From Candidatus Omnitrophota bacterium (GTDB taxonomy: Bacteria > Omnitrophota > Gorgyraeia > Duberdicusellales > 4484-171), in assembly GCA_024231025.1 (NCBI GenBank), contig JAAEQW010000274.1, forward strand, positions 1,615 to 65,614: a stretch of 64,000 nucleotides of DNA. Reading direction: 5' to 3'. The translations under genes were made by a program, and so were the position numbers. Below are positions 4,564-42,244 of this stretch, piece after piece. The notes under the pieces are model-generated. The model made no database searches. It was given only the letters and a program-made list of their open reading frames with translations, and had not been told where the DNA came from. Every line of letters starts with the position of its first letter. Within the stretch, counting starts at the first letter, position 1.

Positions 4564-4706
4564 AGTTTGTTTTCCTCCTACTAAAATAATACTACTTATG
4601 CGCTAAATCGTCAACCAGCAGCGCATGTTTATCAATACATTTTGATAACAGAAAATAACATTTGCTTTTCTTTGACAACCGGTTTTAAAAAATATACAAT
4701 AGTTTT

Positions 4707-32579: not shown

Positions 32580-32852
32580 TTAACTAAATTTGTAATGTTT
32601 TTTTACTTTTTTCTTTACAATCCATTTGCAGCTCAAACCCTGTGGAAATGAAACAAAGTCTCCTTTGCAAATTTTTACAGATTCGTTGTCGGTTTGGACA
32701 ACTACTTCACCTTCCAAAAAAAGACACTCTTCTTTTTGGTCGTAATGCCAATCAAACGTGCTTTCTTCTTTTTGCCAAATTGGCCAATTGTTTATTCCTA
32801 ACTGAGCAACTTCCTCATCCGTTAATTTTTTAATTTCAATTTTTTCACTCAT
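32580..32852 (-). CDS. Small cupin-domain protein.
   Basis: 90 aa beta-rich protein with a cupin-like pattern. Confidence 0.45.
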   Translation of the reverse strand: MSEKIEIKKLTDEEVAQLGINNWPIWQKEESTFDWHYDQKEECLFLEGEVVVQTDNESVKICKGDFVSFPQGLSCKWIVKKKVKKHYKFS

Positions 32853-33610
32853 TAGACCCTCCCTTTTAAATATTGTAGTCTCAATTTTTCAGGAAATTTT
32901 TCAATCGCATACCGTAACATAACTCTTGGCATAGTTTTGTAATGCCGCTTAAGAAATTCCTCTTCCTTAAGCTTATCTCTTTTGCCCACTTCACGCAACA
33001 TCCATCCGCATGCTTTATGAATTAAATCATGTTTATCCGATAGTAGTATTTTAGCAATTTTTAACGTATCTTCAAATTTATTATTTCTAATAAAAGAAAG
33101 AGTTGCGACAATCGAAACCCTTCTTTGCCATAAGCTCTTTGATCTAGCCAACTTATAGAGTGTTCTTTTATCTTTATCTTTTAAAAAATCACCAACAATA
33201 TTAGGCGCACTTAAATCAACTAGGTCCCAATTGTTTATAAACTTAGTGTTATTTAGATATACTTTGAATATTTTTTCTCTTTGAGAAATATTTCCCTTAT
33301 TATACTTCATAATGAAGATCAAAAGAGCCAACAAACGTTCTTCGTGAATGGGTGATTTTAAAATCTCAAGTGTTTCGCTTAAGCTTAAATCTTGATTGCG
33401 CTTGGCAACACTGCGAGTTTGCGGAACCTTAACCCCTAAAAAAATATCACCTTCTCCATATTGACCCGGACCGGTTTTAAAGAAGTTTTGTAGAATTTTG
33501 GCCTTTTGCTTGCTAGAGTGTCTTTTTAACTCTCTTTTAACTTTTGCTGCCTTAACCGACAACGCCTCATCTTGCTTCGTCGATAATTTTAGGCTTTTGG
33601 AAGAACTCAT
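32852..33610 (-). CDS. DNA alkylation repair protein (AlkC/AlkD-like HEAT-repeat glycosylase family).
   Basis: Motifs FFKTGPGQYGEGDIFLGVKVP, NNWDLVD and ACGWMLRE. Confidence 0.7.
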   Translation of the reverse strand: MSSSKSLKLSTKQDEALSVKAAKVKRELKRHSSKQKAKILQNFFKTGPGQYGEGDIFLGVKVPQTRSVAKRNQDLSLSETLEILKSPIHEERLLALLIFIMKYNKGNISQREKIFKVYLNNTKFINNWDLVDLSAPNIVGDFLKDKDKRTLYKLARSKSLWQRRVSIVATLSFIRNNKFEDTLKIAKILLSDKHDLIHKACGWMLREVGKRDKLKEEEFLKRHYKTMPRVMLRYAIEKFPEKLRLQYLKGRV

Positions 33611-33887
33611 CTTTGTGTTTTACCCCCTTACAGGCATAGAAAAAAATAATTGCCGCCTCTCTGTACAATTGCCCACAATAACTCAAGCTTTGTAATACAG
33701 CTTGTTTAACGTGACTGGTATAACTTTTAATTTTTGTTTCTTGAAAACAGAGGAAAATAATGAAAACTATCAAAAAAATAAATCGCATCGACACACGACG
33801 GAAAACTTTTGTTCTCTTTTTTTGATAACACTGTTGACAAAGATGACCTTTGGCAACTTCCTTAAAACATTCAACACAATGTCTCAT
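33567..33887 (-). CDS. Hypothetical small protein with an N-terminal zinc ribbon (CxxC...CxxC) and a TM helix. It may be spurious.
   Basis: The ORF overlaps the AlkD-like start by 44 nt. It has no family assignment. Confidence 0.25.
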   Translation of the reverse strand: MRHCVECFKEVAKGHLCQQCYQKKRTKVFRRVSMRFIFLIVFIIFLCFQETKIKSYTSHVKQAVLQSLSYCGQLYREAAIIFFYACKGVKHKDEFFQKPKIIDEAR

Positions 33888-33943
33888 ATTAAGCGATGTT
33901 TAAAGAAATAAATAGCGCGACTCGATTGAACTGATAATGCTCT

Positions 33944-34155
33944 AATGCTCTATTTTTCGCTCAAAGAGCGAAAAATGGCGGCGAATGCTCAATGAGGCAA
34001 CGGTTTTCAAGTCGCAGACGCTGAAAACTGTGTAGCCGAATTAATCCCGATAAGCGAGTCACACGAGCTGTATCGGGAGACTTGTTGAGCTCCTCAATAT
34101 TACCTATAAAGCGAAATCCGCCTCTGGCGGGAACCACCGACAAAACGGGTATGAG
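33944..34155 (-). repeat. Partial duplicate of tRNA-Met(CAT). It shares 41 nt (the acceptor 3' strand plus the downstream hairpin) and 25 nt (anticodon loop to T-stem) with the intact tRNA, split by a 146-nt unrelated insert. It is a putative att-site remnant.
   Basis: Positions 33944-33984 equal 37360-37400 exactly. Positions 34131-34155 equal 37409-37433 exactly. The 8 nt GTGGACTT of the tRNA are replaced by 146 nt, and no cloverleaf can be folded. Confidence 0.6.
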
Positions 34156-34240
34156 GCTCGTACCTCGCCCATCCAAATAACTATTATTACACAAAAAACC
34201 CATATTGTAGATTAATTTTCCGTTACGCCTTCACCTTCTT

Positions 34241-34861
34241 TTAAATTATCTTGTCCTTGCTCGCACGTATTCTAATAACATTTTCGGATACTTTAAATTT
34301 ATCTGGCAATAAAAATCTGAATATGACTTTTTTAATCCCATCAGAATTATCGTCATACTTAAACTCACATATATCTTCTGCTTCTTTAATCGCCTTATAA
34401 AACTCTTTTTTAAAAACTTTCCGAGGAACTAACACCAAACCAGCAAAGTTGTCAGCTTGTCGTTCAAGCATATCTCTTTTTTCTACTGACATATCTTGAA
34501 TCAATTTTTTCCACTCGTCTCTACTTTCAAACGTAAACTCCTGATACATATAAGAGTGCAAAAACATATGCCCTATTTCATGTGCTAAACTAAAACGTAA
34601 TCTGTTTGGGCGTTGATGATAAATAAACTCATCAACGGAAATGCTACTAAAATCATTAGCAATAAAAGCATCTATATCCAACCCCGCCCTCGAAAATGAA
34701 TTTTTCAAATCAGGAAGTGGAATAATATCTATTTTTAATTTATTGTCTAAAATTTCCTCTATATCAACAAAGATAGAGAAATCTGGGCTGTAACTTGCTA
34801 AAAAACTTTCAGCAACAGCATTTATTTCATCGTAGGTTTTGAAGATGGGTTCGAATTGCAT
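34241..34861 (-). CDS. ImmA/IrrE family metallopeptidase (DUF955).
   Basis: HEIGHMFLH motif. Its stop is 5 nt from the upstream XRE gene, giving the classic XRE-ImmA pair. Confidence 0.8.
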   Translation of the reverse strand: MQFEPIFKTYDEINAVAESFLASYSPDFSIFVDIEEILDNKLKIDIIPLPDLKNSFSRAGLDIDAFIANDFSSISVDEFIYHQRPNRLRFSLAHEIGHMFLHSYMYQEFTFESRDEWKKLIQDMSVEKRDMLERQADNFAGLVLVPRKVFKKEFYKAIKEAEDICEFKYDDNSDGIKKVIFRFLLPDKFKVSENVIRIRASKDKII

Positions 34862-34866
34862 TCAGT

Positions 34867-35232
34867 CTAAGATTCTTTTATCCTATCAATCAGCTCATCA
34901 AGCTCTTTCTCGGATAACTTTTTATCTTTTAATGTTCTGAAAAATACTGGCAGGCGAGACATTAGCTCCTCTTCCTTTTGTACATCAGTAGGAATTTTCC
35001 CCGCATCAACTGACGCAAAATCCATGAATGCTTGCCAATCATCGCTACCTTTTTTGATTTCTAAAAAAGTAGCTAATTCTTCAAGCCTTTCTTCAGACTG
35101 CGGCGGAGACATTTTCCCCCGTTCAATCTTGCTTATATTCCCAGCATCCAATTCATGTTCCAAGCAAAATTGACGCAATGTCTTCCCTAAAGATATCCTT
35201 TTTTCTTTAAAAAATTCTCCGAAACTACCCAT
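34867..35232 (-). CDS. XRE-family HTH transcriptional regulator.
   Basis: The residues KRISLGKTLRQFCLEHELDAGNISKIERGK form an HTH. Confidence 0.8.
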   Translation of the reverse strand: MGSFGEFFKEKRISLGKTLRQFCLEHELDAGNISKIERGKMSPPQSEERLEELATFLEIKKGSDDWQAFMDFASVDAGKIPTDVQKEEELMSRLPVFFRTLKDKKLSEKELDELIDRIKES

Positions 35233-35539
35233 ATTAAACCTCCCCCACTAAGGTTTATGTGTTGTAATATACTTACAACTCCCAATTAGAGTGTACCATA
35301 ATTGTAAAAAAAATACAACCTTGTTCAAGTCCATTCCATATACATTATTACTTCTATATCTCTCATAATATCAATGTGTTACAGCAAAAATATAATTTAA
35401 TTTCCAACAATATCTTAATGCCACTCTAAATTCACTCAAAATAAACAAATAAACGACCGTTTTTAGTTTCCTAATTCTTACCATAATATCGCCCATTTTG
35501 CTTGCCTAAGAGCCTGCGGAAACTAAGGACTTGTCGAAA

Positions 35540-35663
35540 AAGCTGGAATAGATTACAAATACTACCAAAGGATAGAAGGTAAAAACCCTCCGAACTTAAA
35601 ACTAGAAGCTATCGAATCTCTCTGCAAAGCTTTTAAGATCAAACCTACGAAAATACTTGAATA
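35540..35663 (+). pseudogene. Relic of an XRE-family HTH gene: a C-terminal fragment with no start codon and an in-frame stop immediately upstream.
   Basis: Translates to ...LSKKAGIDYKYYQRIEGKNPPNLKLEAIESLCKAFKIKPTKILE*, with TAA directly 5' of the fragment. Confidence 0.45.
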
Positions 35664-35759
35664 AAAACTCGCCAAAGGCTTTAAAACAAAACTATCTAAG
35701 CTTTTAGATATTAAATAATAAGATTCTTTAGCGGCATTTAAGCGATCTGAATATATTAA

Positions 35760-36782
35760 CTAAGGCAATAATCTTCTATTTACAGCTATTAGCTTGCTTA
35801 CTTCCTTTGAATCAACATCAAAATGATGACCTGATTTTATTGGAATCAATACCCCATTAAAATTATTACAAAATTTCACTAAATATGTCTTGAGATTAAA
35901 GATGCTCACCCTGCTAATTAAGCTTGTGCCTTTCCATCCCAAAATAATAAGGTGACCATTTGTAACTTTTATATTTTGACTTTGCAGTTTTCTATCAATA
36001 TCAAGAATAGGTGGTTCGTTGACACCGAAATACTCTTTGCTATCTCCTTCACCAAATCTTATAAATTTCCTAATTCCGTCAAATTCTTCTCTCAAAGCGA
36101 ATTTTTTCCCGACTATGCATGCTAAATAATTAAAAGCTATCTTGCATATCCCTCTATATACCACAGAATCAATTTTTATAATACCTTCGACTAATGTTTG
36201 ATTCCTCTTTTTAACTTCCTCTGGCCACTCTAAATCTTCTTCGGGTTTAATATTCATCCCTTTATCGCTAAACACTCTTAATAGACTTTGCATTTCATTA
36301 TCGTCTTTTGCTATTAAAGGAATTTTCTTATCTTTAATCTCGTACCCTTTACTTGTTAATTCTTTCGCATGGGGTATATCATTCGGCTCAAAATAATCAT
36401 ATTCTTGTGTTTGCTTATTGAAAAACCCTGCTTGTAATACAGGGTCTATATCATTTTCTCCTTGCACTCCAGAGTACCTTGGTATAACTATCATCCCTTT
36501 CAACTCTCCACAAGGTATCTTAAATTTCAATCTCTTATGCTTCTTCGGATTTTCTCTTGGTTTAATGCCATGGATATATCTAACAACTCCCTCGATGGTG
36601 TCCCTGCCTAAGTATAGCTCTATATTATTTCCAAAAAACTGGTTACACTCATCACAGACGCTTTTATAAAGTAAAAGATTACCGGGAGTAAATTTACCGA
36701 AGCATTGAGGAATAACATGCTCTCGCTTGCTAAATTCTTCTTCTGCCTTATCTTTAGAGCAATAAATACACTTTTCCTTCAT
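35760..36782 (-). CDS. HNH (His-Me finger) nuclease-domain protein with a 290-aa C-terminal domain of unknown function. A candidate defence/abortive-infection effector.
   Basis: N-terminal CIYC...EHVIPQCFG...CDECN, the HNH_5-type pattern. The rest has no recognisable motifs. The gene lies inside a tRNA-flanked island next to XRE/ImmA. Confidence 0.6.
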   Translation of the reverse strand: MKEKCIYCSKDKAEEEFSKREHVIPQCFGKFTPGNLLLYKSVCDECNQFFGNNIELYLGRDTIEGVVRYIHGIKPRENPKKHKRLKFKIPCGELKGMIVIPRYSGVQGENDIDPVLQAGFFNKQTQEYDYFEPNDIPHAKELTSKGYEIKDKKIPLIAKDDNEMQSLLRVFSDKGMNIKPEEDLEWPEEVKKRNQTLVEGIIKIDSVVYRGICKIAFNYLACIVGKKFALREEFDGIRKFIRFGEGDSKEYFGVNEPPILDIDRKLQSQNIKVTNGHLIILGWKGTSLISRVSIFNLKTYLVKFCNNFNGVLIPIKSGHHFDVDSKEVSKLIAVNRRLLP

Positions 36783-36924
36783 AATATCCTTATTATAGCT
36801 CTGGAATAGACTTTTCGTATTAAATATTCAACGAATGCCTCTCAACCGCATTTTTTAGCTGTTTGTCCTTACAACCTAAGTAGCATCTGGTTTGAAGAAA
36901 AGAGTCTAGTGCGAGGTTATTTAC

Positions 36925-37281
36925 TTACTGTTTCTTATTGATCAAACCGGAGAGCATTTTGCAAATAGTTTCTAGGTTTTGCAAAAGAGTCTGGCAAACT
37001 GCCGCATCAACTAAATTTTCCCGTTTGCAGATTTCTAAAATAGGTACGCATTCAAAGGCGGAGCCGCGAGCAATCCGAAAGAATGATTGCCTTTCTTTAA
37101 GGTGATATCTGCCATTGCCTTCGGCAATGTTTAAAGAAACAGAAAGAGCGGCGCGGTTGAATTGATCGATGATATGATAGTTACCTTTGGGGAAGCTCTT
37201 CGTAAGCTTAGATACTTGACAATAAAAGTCTATGGCTTTATTGTAAACGTCTAATTTTTCAAGCATGAAAGCCATAATCAC
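36925..37281 (-). CDS. Four-helix-bundle protein (23S rRNA intervening-sequence protein family, TIGR02436-like).
   Basis: NIAEGNGRY and ARGSAFE signature motifs, in a 118 aa protein. Confidence 0.7.
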   Translation of the reverse strand: MIMAFMLEKLDVYNKAIDFYCQVSKLTKSFPKGNYHIIDQFNRAALSVSLNIAEGNGRYHLKERQSFFRIARGSAFECVPILEICKRENLVDAAVCQTLLQNLETICKMLSGLINKKQ

Positions 37282-37289
37282 CAGACATT

Positions 37290-37350
37290 GAACATTTGAT
37301 CATTGGAACATTTGACCACATTGTCGCATTCCTCTAATGTTCAAATGCTC
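37290..37350. promoter_or_regulatory. Repeated GAACATTTGA motifs (two direct and one inverted) immediately upstream of the four-helix-bundle gene. A putative operator or arm-type binding site.
   Basis: attGAACATTTGAtcattgGAACATTTGAcc...ctaATGTTCAAATGctc. Confidence 0.35.
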
Positions 37351-37391
37351 GAATGCTCCAATGCTCTATTTTTCGCTCAAAGAGCGAAAAA

Positions 37392-37465
37392 TGGCGGCGA
37401 GTGGACTTGAACCACCGACAAAACGGGTATGAGCCGTTTGCTCTACCAGCCTGAGCTACGCCGCC
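37392..37465 (-). tRNA. tRNA-Met (anticodon CAT, elongator or Ile-lysidine type), 74 nt with no encoded CCA.
   Basis: Manual cloverleaf: acceptor GGCGGCG/CGCCGCC, D arm GCTC-AGGCTGGTA-GAGC, anticodon arm AACGG-CTCATAC-CCGTT and T arm GGTGG-TTCAAGT-CCACT, with discriminator A followed by a hairpin. Confidence 0.85.
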
Positions 37466-37539
37466 AAGATAGAATATCACCCAACAAACATAAAGGCTTG
37501 ATTATTATATTTCAAAGGCGAGTTGTTATAAAGACAACA

Positions 37540-37848
37540 TTAAAAATGAAAATCCTTAACAATCACCCATAAAAGCGCAACGATAACCCCTGAACAAATA
37601 ACATAAAAATCATAAAAATAGAAAAACTCTCTTAAGCGTTCCCGATTGTGATGCTTTCCGGCAGGAAGATTATATTTTTTTTTAATATCTTCTTTCATCT
37701 TGAGAATATCTTTTCTTTTGAAACGAAGATATTCTCCTGCCATTTTAAAATGCGGCAAAAGATCGCTATTCGCTAAATCAATTACATCCTTTTCGGGTAT
37801 TCCCAATATCCGGGAAACTTCACGCGTAGTAAGAAGTTTTTCTTCCAT
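37540..37848 (-). CDS. Excisionase-type HTH DNA-binding protein with a C-terminal TM helix.
   Basis: N-terminal LTTREVSRILGIPEKDVIDLANSDLLPHF (HTH_17-like) and C-terminal FYVICSGVIVALLWVIV. Confidence 0.5.
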   Translation of the reverse strand: MEEKLLTTREVSRILGIPEKDVIDLANSDLLPHFKMAGEYLRFKRKDILKMKEDIKKKYNLPAGKHHNRERLREFFYFYDFYVICSGVIVALLWVIVKDFHF

Positions 37849-37862
37849 GACAATTTACTCGT

Positions 37863-38375
37863 TTAACTATTTTGGCTAAGCCAGGTTTCTACTTCCTTGT
37901 GATCAAATAAAAGATTTGAGCCCGACTTTTCTGCCGGAATCGCTCCAGTTCCGACCCACTCCATAATTTTACTCTCGCCTACCGAAAGATAGTCAGATAG
38001 CTCTTCTATTGACATTTTTACTTGAGCCATTCTGCAATTTCCGTTTAGCACTGCCCCTTTATCAACGGCAAGCCGGGGAGTTTCAATGTTTCCAACTACC
38101 TCAGCTGTTGACCCTAGTTCAACTAAACGACTAGCTTTAATGTCGCCTTTTACTATACCGGCAATGGCTATGTTTTCGCCGATAATATCTGCTGTTACGG
38201 TAGCGTTTTTACCGATAATCAAATTCCCTTTTGTTGTTAAATCTCCATCAAACTTTCCACTTATGCGTAAATTTACAGGGTCAGAAAAAACTAAGCTTCC
38301 CCTCATTGCTGCAGTAACGTCAAGAAACTTCACTTCATCACTTTTTTTGTCTTCCCTTTTCTTCATCACAACCAC
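37863..38375 (-). CDS. Bactofilin-domain protein fused to a C-terminal excisionase-type HTH DNA-binding domain.
   Basis: Bactofilin beta-helix repeats (ISGKFDGDLTTKGNLIIGKNATVTADIIGENIAIAGIVKGDI...) followed by MSIEELSDYLSVGESKIMEWVGTGAIPAEK. Confidence 0.6.
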   Translation of the reverse strand: MVVMKKREDKKSDEVKFLDVTAAMRGSLVFSDPVNLRISGKFDGDLTTKGNLIIGKNATVTADIIGENIAIAGIVKGDIKASRLVELGSTAEVVGNIETPRLAVDKGAVLNGNCRMAQVKMSIEELSDYLSVGESKIMEWVGTGAIPAEKSGSNLLFDHKEVETWLSQNS

Positions 38376-41741: not shown

Positions 41742-41984
41742 ATGACAACATTAACGGCCAGTGAGGCGCGAGCAAAGCTGTATAAGCTATTGGACAAAGC
41801 GGCTCTATCGCATGAGCCCATACAAATTACCGGTAAAAGGCATAATGCCGTATTAATCTCAGAAGATGACTGGCGTGCAATAAACGAAACGCTATATTTG
41901 CTTTCTGTTCCGAAAATGAGGGAATCTATCCGAGAAGGCCTGAAAACCCCTATCAAAAAGTGCAATAAAAGATTGAAGTGGTAG
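41742..41984 (+). CDS. yefM: Antitoxin, Phd/YefM family.
   Basis: MTTLTASEARAKLYKLLD...PIQITGKRHNAVLISEDDWRAINETLYLL. Confidence 0.8.
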   Translation: MTTLTASEARAKLYKLLDKAALSHEPIQITGKRHNAVLISEDDWRAINETLYLLSVPKMRESIREGLKTPIKKCNKRLKW

Positions 41985-42244
41985 ACTGGAAACTAGTTTA
42001 TACAAAACAAGCCCAAAAGGATGCGAAAAAACTATCATCTGCTGGTTTACGCCTAAAAGCAGAGACCCTTCTCAAAGTCGTAAGAAAAAACCCTTTCCAG
42101 GCCCCTCCTCCATTCGAAAAGCTAATTGGCGACCTAGAAGGCGCATATTCTCGCAGAATAAATATCAAGCATCGTCTTGTGTATCAAGTGCTAAAAAAGT
42201 ATAAAACAGTAAAAATTATTCGAATGTGGACGCATTACGAATAA
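41978..42244 (+). CDS. yoeB: Toxin YoeB (Txe family mRNA interferase).
   Basis: W..VYTKQAQKDAKKL...IKHRLVYQV...IIRMWTHYE, overlapping the yefM stop. Confidence 0.85.
   Translation: MVDWKLVYTKQAQKDAKKLSSAGLRLKAETLLKVVRKNPFQAPPPFEKLIGDLEGAYSRRINIKHRLVYQVLKKYKTVKIIRMWTHYE

Follow-up and report, generated by a model that had tools for sequence, protein, structure and literature searches.

A predicted stand-alone HNH endonuclease with an uncharacterised tail, carried by a decayed islet at a tRNA-Met gene of an Omnitrophota bacterium

The window, i.e. the whole stretch of 64,000 nucleotides from a Candidatus Omnitrophota bacterium that was analysed here, holds a small islet next to a tRNA-Met gene and, within it, an intact gene for an HNH-family protein (Table 1). 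The product is predicted to be a self-contained DNA endonuclease. Its most likely use, to which we attach about an even chance, is stand-alone defence against foreign DNA, to the benefit of either the host or the element that carries the gene. An earlier note on this DNA had already proposed a single-gene defence or abortive-infection effector. That proposal is a fair hypothesis, because homologues of the gene recur in the neighbourhood of defence and mobile-element genes; the arguments then drawn from the adjacent XRE/ImmA and four-helix-bundle genes are unsupported.

Table 1. Features of the islet and of the HNH gene (positions in the window)
Feature	Position	Strand	Evidence
Decayed partial duplicate of tRNA-Met 3' half, other islet boundary	33893..34155	minus	direct repeats, alignment
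ImmA/IrrE-type M78 metalloprotease gene (HEIGH motif), CapP-like	34241..34861	minus	Peptidase_M78 E=1.4e-12; PADLOC capP E=7.6e-16
XRE-family repressor gene (ImmR/CapH-like)	34867..35232	minus	HTH_19, HTH_3 weak, below Pfam cut-offs; PADLOC capH E=6e-5
Two operator-like palindromes GTTGTAA-N5-TTACAAC	35261..35319		just upstream of XRE gene
Frameshifted XRE-type helix-turn-helix pseudogene (cro-like)	35502..35664	plus	three-frame translation
HNH-family nuclease gene, 340 aa, intact	35760..36782	minus	ORF list; ATG start, AAGGA ribosome-binding site 6 nt upstream
Conserved C-terminal region, residues 205-330	35793..36170	minus	three helices then beta-meander
Fast-evolving middle region, residues 75-200	36183..36560	minus	beta-meander + small alpha/beta insert (predicted structure)
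Cys4-zinc His-Me (beta-beta-alpha-metal) finger, residues 5-60	36603..36770	minus	Pfam HNH_5
Four-helix-bundle protein gene (23S rRNA intervening-sequence protein family)	36925..37281	minus	PF05635 E=3e-29; TIGR02436 E=6e-28
Leader, tRNA-Met to four-helix-bundle gene	37282..37390	minus	inverted repeats, RNA fold
Intact tRNA-Met (CAT), one islet boundary	37391..37466	minus	ARAGORN; Rfam tRNA 63.8 bits

The finger and the tail

A Candidatus Omnitrophica MAG encodes a protein with 100% identity to the HNH protein, annotated there as “HNH endonuclease”. The complete His-Me finger that had been read at the N-terminus of the HNH protein is borne out by a match to Pfam HNH_5 (PF14279) with 48.7 bits for a cut-off of 27.5 (E=7e-13), and comprises the motifs C5-x2-C8, E21-H22-V-I-P-Q26 and C43-D-E-C46-N47. 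C5, C8, H22, N35, C43, C46 and N47 are invariant in 41 homologues; C5, C8, H22, C43, C46 and N47 are conserved at 90% or more among 110 divergent relatives, whose median identity to the query is 34%. From general knowledge of HNH enzymes we take C5, C8, C43 and C46 to be the zinc ligands and H22 the likely general base, N35 and N47 being presumably the other residues of the motif.

The remaining 280 residues or so had been described as lacking any recognisable motif, and they proved so in every collection searched. Pfam returns no family for residues 71-340 even at E<=10, and the same holds for four distant homologues. NCBIfam gives no match to the tail, PADLOC (2023 release, which has no model for this family) no full-length match to the protein, and the PDB sequences no match at E<=10 with either the single protein or a 41-sequence profile as query. 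The sole PHROG match of the tail is phrog_35254, a family of unknown function, the PHROG matches being weak. No known homing-endonuclease or restriction-associated family, a possibility that the earlier note had left standing for the tail, was matched.

The AlphaFold model of the full-length protein reaches a pLDDT of 90.2 and a pTM of 0.88. When the tail is modelled without the finger these values fall to 79.2 and 0.64, and finger and tail are predicted to pack as one compact body. Foldseek finds no match for this model in PDB or BFVD (no PDB match is better than E=0.24). The structural check proposed for the tail, like the sequence searches, therefore leaves it uncharacterised.

Within the tail two regions evolve at different rates. 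The mean pairwise identity among the 110 relatives is 20% in the middle region, 46% in the HNH finger and 37% in the C-terminal part; in the closer set of 41 sequences the corresponding values are 37%, 63% and 54%. From this pattern the middle region is a candidate surface for specificity or for the sensing of a trigger. The C-terminal region, for which the Pfam, PDB and Foldseek searches gave no relative, contains the near-invariant residues D205, R210, K214, I215, F217, N218, Y219, R238, R242, G276, H277, N296, Y300, G318 and H319.

Spread and neighbourhoods of the family

The family was sized with a profile of the tail alone, after clustering at 50% identity. At least 1289 clusters were retrieved, 782 of them at E<=1e-10; nearly all members have about 335 residues, with the tail at about 70-335. 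HNH_5 directly precedes the tail in 10 of 10 sampled divergent members, three longer proteins included. Domain swaps were considered as a clue to the function of the tail and give none, because the profile search places it essentially only behind HNH_5. By these searches the finger and its tail of about 270 residues appear to be one evolutionary unit.

A pattern-limited scan of one genome per species (185,579 species) yielded only 76 loci, thinly scattered over many phyla: Omnitrophota, Planctomycetes, Nitrospirota, Desulfobacterota, Chloroflexota, Elusimicrobiota, Acidobacteriota, Gemmatimonadota and Proteobacteria for the bacteria, Thermoplasmata and Bathyarchaeia for the archaea. Two copies, L007 and L008, occur in a single MAG, and several copies are decayed, with three stop codons in L048 and fragmentation in L051 and L057. 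A tblastn search of 50,697 records of isolated phage genomes gave no match to the family; IMG/VR gave three matches to the HNH protein, one of them full length, and the annotated collections a single weak and partial one, on a Clostridioides plasmid. As judged from these sequences, the family is large, uncharacterised, apparently horizontally mobile and patchy across bacterial and archaeal phyla. We found no paper on the architecture of HNH_5 followed by this tail. General surveys alone mention PF14279/HNH_5, and PMC5714182 lists, without description, a “group 8” that has this Pfam and no annotation. No homologue of the family has been characterised, which counts against the defence reading.

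Partners were sought by all-against-all clustering of the ORFs of at least 70 aa located within 5 kb of the homologue in 51 loci. No neighbour is common to the loci of the family, in agreement with the earlier description of a stand-alone HNH protein. The four-helix-bundle, XRE and ImmA genes are singletons in this clustering, and Peptidase_M78 is absent from the families common to two or more of 149 neighbour proteins. Since no neighbour is conserved, neither the four-helix-bundle gene nor the XRE/ImmA pair is a partner of the HNH gene. The co-occurrence with the four-helix-bundle gene that was to be looked for is likewise absent: its homologue adjoins the HNH gene in 0 of the 51 other loci. 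For a toxin-antitoxin arrangement, the comparison covers the ORFs of at least 70 aa in the 51 loci, among which no conserved adjacent gene was seen.

Restriction, defence or mobile-element genes are frequent neighbours of the family. In L037 the homologue separates hsdS from hsdR in a type I system, two others adjoin a type III methyltransferase and helicase (L014 and L023), and another lies between mad3-like and mad8-like genes (L020). Others are found beside TIR, Metallophos and patatin genes and a PIN-MazE pair, beside a STAND NTPase with DUF4062, beside Schlafen/AlbA_2 genes, within a conjugative region carrying ArdC, or next to integrases, a primase-like gene and IS91. Such hallmarks of defence or mobility are present in 7 of 9 loci picked solely for the length of their contig, an uncontrolled count. 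Some homologues are located among housekeeping genes (BamA, Mfd and TamB; gyrase A), and others have nothing telling nearby.

By guilt by association, a defence role of the family is thus plausible. The protein might then work as follows. The conserved basic or polar residues of the C-terminal region (R210, K214, N218, Y219, R238, R242, H277, N296, Y300 and H319) may hold the DNA or close the active site, while the middle region would set what is cut or when, either by reading a feature of foreign DNA, as type IV enzymes do, or by sensing infection. With such control, an HNH finger that is by itself unspecific would do no harm even though no immunity protein accompanies it. More tentatively, we propose that the tail may be a built-in sensor or clamp of a new fold, that the family could be a widespread single-protein immune nuclease that has gone unrecognised, and that its middle region might recognise foreign DNA or a phage trigger.

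If the family is one of defence nucleases, it would add a compact (1 kb) and partner-free immune gene distributed across bacteria and archaea. The family is concentrated in uncultivated anaerobic lineages, which are poorly covered by defence catalogues drawn largely from cultured bacteria. The tail, which has no recognisable relatives and is confidently modelled, would in that case represent a new way to control a generic HNH finger, and possibly a new DNA-recognition module.

Several of these observations also suit a selfish, free-standing endonuclease of the homing type, whose tail would be a DNA-binding domain for a long site and which would cut alleles that lack it and so get itself copied into them. 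A single partner-less gene lodged in unrelated places, even inside an operon as between hsdS and hsdR, is what such an element would produce; the decayed copies, a region whose rapid evolution could keep pace with target sites, and the relatives in viral sequence (the weak PHROG matches and one IMG/VR contig) point the same way. We nevertheless consider this reading unlikely. The 50,697 isolated phage genomes gave no match, no DNA-binding domain of the NUMOD/IENR type or otherwise known from homing enzymes was detected by Pfam (tail, to E<=10), and no target gene recurs beside the insertions in the 51 loci. The gene studied here lies in a chromosomal islet, outside any intron or intein, and the best-conserved stretch of the tail hardly varies from one phylum to another, contrary to what one would expect of a reader of specific sites.

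The islet at the tRNA-Met gene

The islet had been called tRNA-flanked. This is right for one end, where an intact tRNA-Met stands; the other is marked only by a decayed and partial copy. The remnant comprises the 3' half of tRNA-Met, the downstream hairpin, AATGCTC repeats and a 14-codon fragment of the four-helix-bundle gene (tblastn, 78.6% over 14 aa). It is linked to the intact end by direct repeats (D5, 25 nt, 100%; D1, 52 nt, 96%; D2, 43 nt, 79%) and contains an unrelated insert of about 145 nt. That this insert is a structured RNA was considered and rejected, its fold being no better than those of shuffled sequences (z=-1.2) and an Rfam match being absent.

The gene is accessory. In a syntenic metagenome contig (L104) the identical tRNA-Met is followed after about 210 bp by a Cupin_3 gene, the window being about 4.5 kb longer at this site; the HNH gene is part of this added DNA, the tRNA-Met site being variable and, in L104, empty. 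With a relative that lacks the whole islet and a family so patchy, the gene is not the ubiquitous core gene that the earlier note had envisaged as an alternative. A strain-level empty site was sought with an exact 40-nt probe made of the tRNA 3' end and the leader, which gave no match; a tRNA-only probe recovered more distant relatives.

The genes of the islet are all on the minus strand and follow each other in the order of transcription tRNA-Met, four-helix-bundle gene, HNH gene, 527-bp spacer, XRE and ImmA. The HNH gene is therefore transcribed ahead of XRE/ImmA and after the four-helix-bundle gene, i.e. in the reverse of the order first described. The spacer contains a cro-like pseudogene, which reads “MPKSLRKLR” in one frame and GLVEKAGIDYKYYQRIEGKNPPNLKLEAIESLCKAFKIKPTKILE followed by a stop in another; it was called helix-turn-helix by reading its translation, without an HMM score. 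This pseudogene is divergent from XRE/ImmA and convergent with the HNH gene, and separates the latter from XRE. Of the two operator-like palindromes that of 35261-35279 is perfect and that of 35301-35319 has 2 mismatches. The only other matches in the window, at 4682, 9922 and 38786, have 2-3 mismatches each, and therefore none is upstream of the HNH gene or of the four-helix-bundle gene. No integrase is present in the islet.

The leader of the four-helix-bundle gene forms a perfect terminator-like hairpin, followed by a long hairpin with arms made of GAGCAUU repeats and of repeats of the complement of GAACAUUUGA. Its predicted RNA fold (-42.1 kcal/mol, z=-4.9) is equalled by 0 of 200 shuffles. 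The GAACATTTGA repeats reported upstream of the four-helix-bundle gene are indeed there, exactly twice in the window (37290 and 37306), just ahead of the start codon. They constitute one arm of the long hairpin, and nothing visible connects them with the HNH gene.

The HNH gene is carried as cargo by an element that has decayed, has no integrase and occupies a variable tRNA-Met hotspot. The most suitable reading of XRE/ImmA and of the cro-like pseudogene is that they remain from the immunity switch of the element that brought the HNH gene in. The locus offers a small worked example of such decay, in which the cargo and a repressor/protease pair were kept and the integrase was lost.

In the scenario of the earlier note the HNH protein would act as an effector that is toxic or causes abortive infection; it would be repressed by XRE, released when ImmA cleaves XRE, and possibly work together with the four-helix-bundle protein. 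The resemblance of the pair to the CBASS regulators CapH and CapP is consistent with it, as are the grouping of all these genes on one strand of one islet and the intact state of the XRE, ImmA, HNH and four-helix-bundle genes next to a decayed cro-like gene and a missing integrase. We hold it to be quite improbable: none of the 51 loci combines the HNH family with XRE/ImmA or with the four-helix-bundle gene, the HNH gene stands upstream of XRE across the spacer with its convergent pseudogene, the palindromes are at the XRE promoter only, and the GAACATTTGA repeats belong to the four-helix-bundle leader. The pair does not look like a dedicated gate for the HNH nuclease.

HNH type II restriction enzymes exist, and a few homologues stand by methyltransferases (the type III genes mentioned above, and an HsdM-like gene in L077), so that the gene could be the orphan endonuclease of a classical restriction-modification system whose protecting methyltransferase lies elsewhere in the genome. 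This too has a low probability. No methyltransferase is found in the islet and none is conserved beside the family (N6_N4_Mtase in just 2 of the 149 neighbour proteins), and where methyltransferases do occur close by, they are part of complete type I or type III systems that have their own nucleases. A housekeeping nuclease for DNA repair or recombination, suggested by the homologues among core genes such as Mfd, BamA and gyrase A, is very improbable given the 76 loci obtained by the pattern-limited scan, thin over many phyla, the syntenic relative without the gene and the MAG with two copies.

Comparison with known systems

In ICEBs1, immR-immA-int reads towards the tRNA attachment site. The XRE and M78 genes of the islet score as capH/capP, the CBASS counterparts of ImmR/ImmA, and also read towards a remnant of a tRNA attachment site; unlike in ICEBs1, no integrase follows them, the divergent partner gene is a pseudogene and there is no sign of control over the HNH gene. 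The position of the homologue inside a type I locus in L037 is comparable to that of PrrC/RloC-type effectors, prrC sitting inside the prr type I locus. This concerns one locus only, and PrrC itself, an anticodon RNase linked to an ATPase, is no HNH DNase.

PtuB, from Septu and some retron systems, shares the HNH subtype and provides the only PADLOC matches of our protein, which are weak (E=0.006 and 0.018) and confined to the finger (residues 2-52). However, PtuB has about 210 residues and works with the ATPase PtuA, whereas the HNH protein has no ATPase partner here and none conserved elsewhere. HNH homing endonucleases such as I-HmuI and the T4 Mob proteins (group 1-2, PMC5714182) are free-standing and likewise combine an N-terminal His-Me finger with a C-terminal DNA-binding part. 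They are of a different HNH subfamily, and neither their NUMOD-like domain nor a recurrent target locus is found with our family.

Cap5 is a CBASS effector with an N-terminal HNH DNase and a C-terminal SAVED sensor (PMC8568899, PMC12141522). It resembles the HNH protein by this arrangement of a DNase and a large C-terminal module on one chain of similar size, and it shows that a tail can silence an unspecific HNH domain until a signal arrives. Unlike Cap5, our protein has a tail without SAVED match (Pfam to E<=10, PADLOC, Foldseek on PDB), and a CD-NTase or other signal-making gene is absent from the islet and not conserved in the 51 loci.

There is also a parallel in organisation with modification-dependent (type IV) restriction nucleases such as McrA and the EVE-HNH enzyme VcaM4I, and with the END nucleases (PMC12191111), which like our family are single-gene nucleases with no cognate methyltransferase. 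Type IV and END nucleases are found in defence islands and combine a nuclease with a reader domain. In McrA and VcaM4I the reader, of PUA/SRA/EVE type (winged-helix in others), is N-terminal, an order that is reversed in the HNH protein, and no modified-base reader (SRA, EVE, YTH, ASCH, winged helix and similar) was matched in its tail by Pfam or by fold. By analogy, a type IV-like nuclease joined to a reader is the working model that would best fit this partner-less HNH protein.

Layout of the islet and its insertion site

Every gene from 29.8 to 41.2 kb of the window lies on the minus strand. The islet, i.e. the extra DNA between tRNA-Met and a decayed copy of it, is transcribed in the order tRNA-Met, leader, four-helix-bundle gene, HNH, 527 bp, XRE, ImmA and decayed tRNA-Met copy (see table). 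HNH, which encodes the protein studied here, is a real, intact and accessory gene that belongs to a large unstudied family.

When the 3' half of tRNA-Met was used as a probe, 12 metagenome contigs were recovered. Contig L104, from a distant relative and not a sister strain, shares the upstream synteny of the window (Ctp, TsaD, MgtC, bactofilin-HTH gene, HTH gene; protein identities 56-69%). Its tRNA-Met is identical, and Cupin_3 comes only ~210 bp further on. The islet that holds HNH is absent there and is not core genome. The site between tRNA-Met and Cupin_3 is a variable hotspot.

Features of the window and of compared loci (L, other genome or metagenome loci; residues refer to the AlphaFold2 model of the HNH protein)
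Feature	Position	Strand	Remark
tRNA-Met	37466-37391	minus	
Leader of four-helix-bundle gene	37282-37390	minus	109 nt
Four-helix-bundle gene	37281-36925	minus	PF05635
HNH	36782-35760	minus	intact ORF, 340 aa
XRE-type helix-turn-helix pseudogene	35502-35664	plus	frameshifted, cro-like; within 527-bp spacer
Operator-like palindromes (two)	35261-35279, 35301-35319		GTTGTAA-N5-TTACAAC, just upstream of XRE
XRE	35232-34867	minus	
ImmA/M78 protease	34861-34241	minus	PADLOC capP 7.6e-16
Decayed tRNA-Met copy, piece 1	34131-34155 = 37409-37433		25 nt identical, anticodon loop to T-stem
Decayed copy, piece 2	33936-33987 = 37352-37403		52 nt, 96%; tRNA 3' end, hairpin, AATGCTC repeats
Decayed copy, piece 3			43 nt, 79%; matches four-helix-bundle codons 40-53
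Insert in T-arm of decayed copy	33976-34130		~145 nt
Bactofilin-HTH_17, then HTH_17 gene	37540-38375	minus	170 aa; 102 aa
Phd/YefM-YoeB	41742-42244	plus	overlapping genes
tRNA-Met-to-Cupin_3 interval, window	32852-37466		4.5 kb
Same interval, L093			0.37 kb
Same interval, L096, L103			1.9 kb; PNPOx, zinc-ribbon, GGDEF genes
Same interval, L100			3.6 kb; additional IS200-like Y1 transposase
Finger and two helices	to ~residue 70		
Five-strand beta-meander	residues 85-200		small alpha/beta insert
Three helices	residues 206-243		
Second beta-meander	residues 252-330		
Type I restriction operon, L037	3472-12036		hsdM ... hsdS - HNH - hsdR; Elusimicrobiota MAG
DUF5677/DUF6988 and Schlafen/AlbA_2 neighbours	L084 9060-9758; L092 2152-3732, 6153-7034; L080 3233-4237; L090 2260-3945		
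Second HNH_5 gene and DUF87 gene, L088	10593-13798		

Around the islet, one protein joins a bactofilin domain to an HTH_17 at its C-terminus, an unusual combination of cytoskeletal and DNA-binding domains, and is followed by an HTH_17 protein with a hydrophobic tail; this pair is also conserved in L104. At 5 kb from the islet, a Phd/YefM antitoxin (PF02604, E=3.8e-19) is encoded with a YoeB toxin (PF06769, E=7.5e-11).

The GAACATTTGA repeats, which the earlier note had taken as context of HNH, belong to the four-helix-bundle leader. This leader folds (-42.1 kcal/mol, z=-4.9) into a terminator-like hairpin, which is perfect, and after it a long hairpin that reaches the four-helix-bundle start codon and is built of GAGCAUU and UCAAAUGUUC repeats, the GAGCAUU repeats forming its 5' arm and the GAACATTTGA repeats its 3' arm. 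These hairpins may control the translation or transcription of the four-helix-bundle gene.

In immunity modules of the ICEBs1 or phage type, repressor and protease read toward the tRNA attachment site and the cro-like gene is divergent. XRE/ImmA, the cro-like gene (pointing away from XRE/ImmA and towards HNH) and the tRNA remnant are laid out in the same way. The integrase is missing. The cro-like gene is dead, which shows that the switch of the element is half dead while repressor and protease are retained. The sequence interrupting the T-arm of the decayed tRNA-Met copy is unrelated and bears two small hairpins; it has no Rfam match, folds no better than its shuffles (z=-1.2) and may be a scar left by a second integration.

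The HNH finger and its tail

The N-terminus of the protein (MKEKC-IY-C ... REHVIPQ ... VCDECN) matches HNH_5 (PF14279) over residues 5-60 (E=7e-13, 48.7 bits vs the Pfam cut-off of 27.5) with all zinc and catalytic residues present. The HNH motif had thus been read correctly, and judged by its sequence the protein is a bona fide HNH_5 member. The tail (residues ~71-340), described earlier as devoid of recognisable motif, is indeed blank in every library tried: residues 71-340 alone match nothing in Pfam at E<=10, NCBIfam gives no match to the protein, two weak PADLOC matches to PtuB (E=0.006 and 0.018) are confined to the finger, the two PHROGs families matched are both of unknown function, and PDB sequences match neither the single protein nor a 41-sequence profile.

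The full-length AlphaFold2 model (41-sequence alignment) is a single confident body (pLDDT 90.2, pTM 0.88). Foldseek against PDB and BFVD gave a best E of 0.07, with TM-scores of at most ~0.16. For the tail modelled alone, confidence falls to pLDDT 79.2 and pTM 0.64, which fits a model where finger and tail are tightly packed; this tail-only model again has no match in PDB.

In databases the family goes by no name but "HNH endonuclease" or "hypothetical". A word-indexed search yielded 253 relatives; the best 120 are nearly all of 330-345 aa, with full-length identities of 45-68%, and one, an "HNH endonuclease" of a Candidatus Omnitrophica MAG, is 100% identical. Among 1.84 billion cluster representatives a tail-only profile matched 1289 clusters at E<=1e-3 and 782 at E<=1e-10. 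Because these matches are nearly all proteins of ~335 aa with the tail spanning ~70-335, and HNH_5 lies directly ahead of the tail in 10/10 divergent or unusually long members scanned, finger and tail form one evolutionary unit. Three members (P0223, 975 aa; P0262, 622 aa; P0224, 417 aa) have long regions without Pfam match flanking this unit, which may be fusions or gene-calling artefacts.

In 110 relatives (median identity to the query 34%), residues conserved at >=90% comprise the zinc and catalytic positions (C5, C8, H22, C43, C46, N47), R60, E64 and R68, and many closely spaced positions in the final third (D205, R210, K214, I215, F217, N218, Y219, F234, R238, R242, G276, H277, N296, Y300, G318). 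Evolution is much faster in residues 75-200 (mean pairwise identity 20%) than in the finger (46%) or in residues 205-330 (37%).

A horizontally mobile family without a partner

Scanning one genome per species gave 76 loci, ~60 of them full length, in Omnitrophota, Planctomycetes, Nitrospirota (two copies in one MAG), Desulfobacterota, Chloroflexota, Elusimicrobiota, Acidobacteriota, Gemmatimonadota, Alpha- and Gammaproteobacteria, Thermoplasmata and Bathyarchaeia. Isolated phage genomes contained no member, plasmids a single weak and partial match, and IMG/VR one full-length copy. For 51 loci and the window, all ORFs of at least 70 aa lying up to 5 kb away were clustered all against all: besides the HNH family, any one cluster is common to a few loci at most. 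Among 149 flanking proteins scanned with Pfam, each family occurs in three at most.

Many neighbourhoods are nevertheless suggestive of defence or mobile elements. In L037 the homologue sits within a type I restriction operon; prrC is comparably placed inside the type I locus prr of E. coli. Other neighbours are a type III methyltransferase and helicase (L014, L023), mad3-like and mad8-like genes (L020, L035) and, at the loci of family members with P handles, TIR, a 1124-aa Metallophos protein, PIN-MazE and patatin (P0069), a STAND NTPase, DUF4062 and DUF5677 (P0024), Schlafen/AlbA_2 genes (P0027, P0003), a conjugative region with ArdC and RadC (P0016), and integrases, a primase-like gene and IS91 (P0102, P0107). 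Nothing telling lies near the homologue in 2/9 loci chosen solely for long contigs. We show that the family is horizontally mobile, entering defence-rich and mobile DNA without a partner.

Two loci have DUF5677/DUF6988 proteins adjoining the HNH homologue, and two Omnitrophota-like loci have Schlafen/AlbA_2 proteins there; neither kind is conserved across the family, and they could be clade-specific companions. In L088 another HNH_5 protein, shorter at 260 aa, lies ~1.6 kb downstream of the homologue, followed by a 762-aa DUF87 (HerA-like) ATPase and adjoined by an integrase and an IS91 transposase; the two genes may be a separate nuclease-ATPase system.

Proposed function and comparison with known systems

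Throughout the family the finger is permanently joined to a conserved tail, against which it is predicted to pack. Judging from context, we give about even credence to a DNA endonuclease acting in stand-alone defence, in which the tail would provide DNA binding and control of the finger. The conserved Arg, Lys, Asn, Tyr and His of 205-320 would touch the DNA backbone or complete the active site, and fast-evolving residues 75-200 would set the recognition target, either a mark carried by foreign DNA or a cue of infection. This would account for survival without an immunity gene. The single-gene defence proposal of the earlier note is therefore kept in part: HNH is reasonably regarded as a candidate defence nuclease of a new, single-protein kind, its control module being unrecognised, and the version gated by XRE/ImmA fails.

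The main rival, a selfish homing-type nuclease, seems unlikely. The protein fails the defining tests of homing endonucleases. A toxin gated by XRE/ImmA is improbable, since co-occurrence, the order of the genes and the position of the operators all speak against it: the four-helix-bundle, XRE and ImmA proteins of the window each remain a singleton in the 51-locus clustering, HNH lies upstream of XRE, and the palindromes occur only at XRE, with none comparable ahead of either HNH or the four-helix-bundle gene. The argument from local context was mostly wrong. An unlinked classical restriction enzyme is doubtful to a similar degree. Some genome loci of the family sit amid core genes; a housekeeping nuclease is barely credible.

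A 2017 survey contains an unannotated HNH_5 group (PMC5714182), which may or may not equal this family. Septu is distinguished by PtuA, absent here, and the defining test of known type IV readers is also failed. Cap5, with an N-terminal HNH and a C-terminal sensor (PMC8568899, PMC12141522), is the closest in layout, both proteins having a large C-terminal part; its defining tests are nevertheless failed, as the SAVED domain and the cyclase are both lacking. With single-gene modification-dependent nucleases, whose current picture is given in PMC12191111, the likeness is one of logic.
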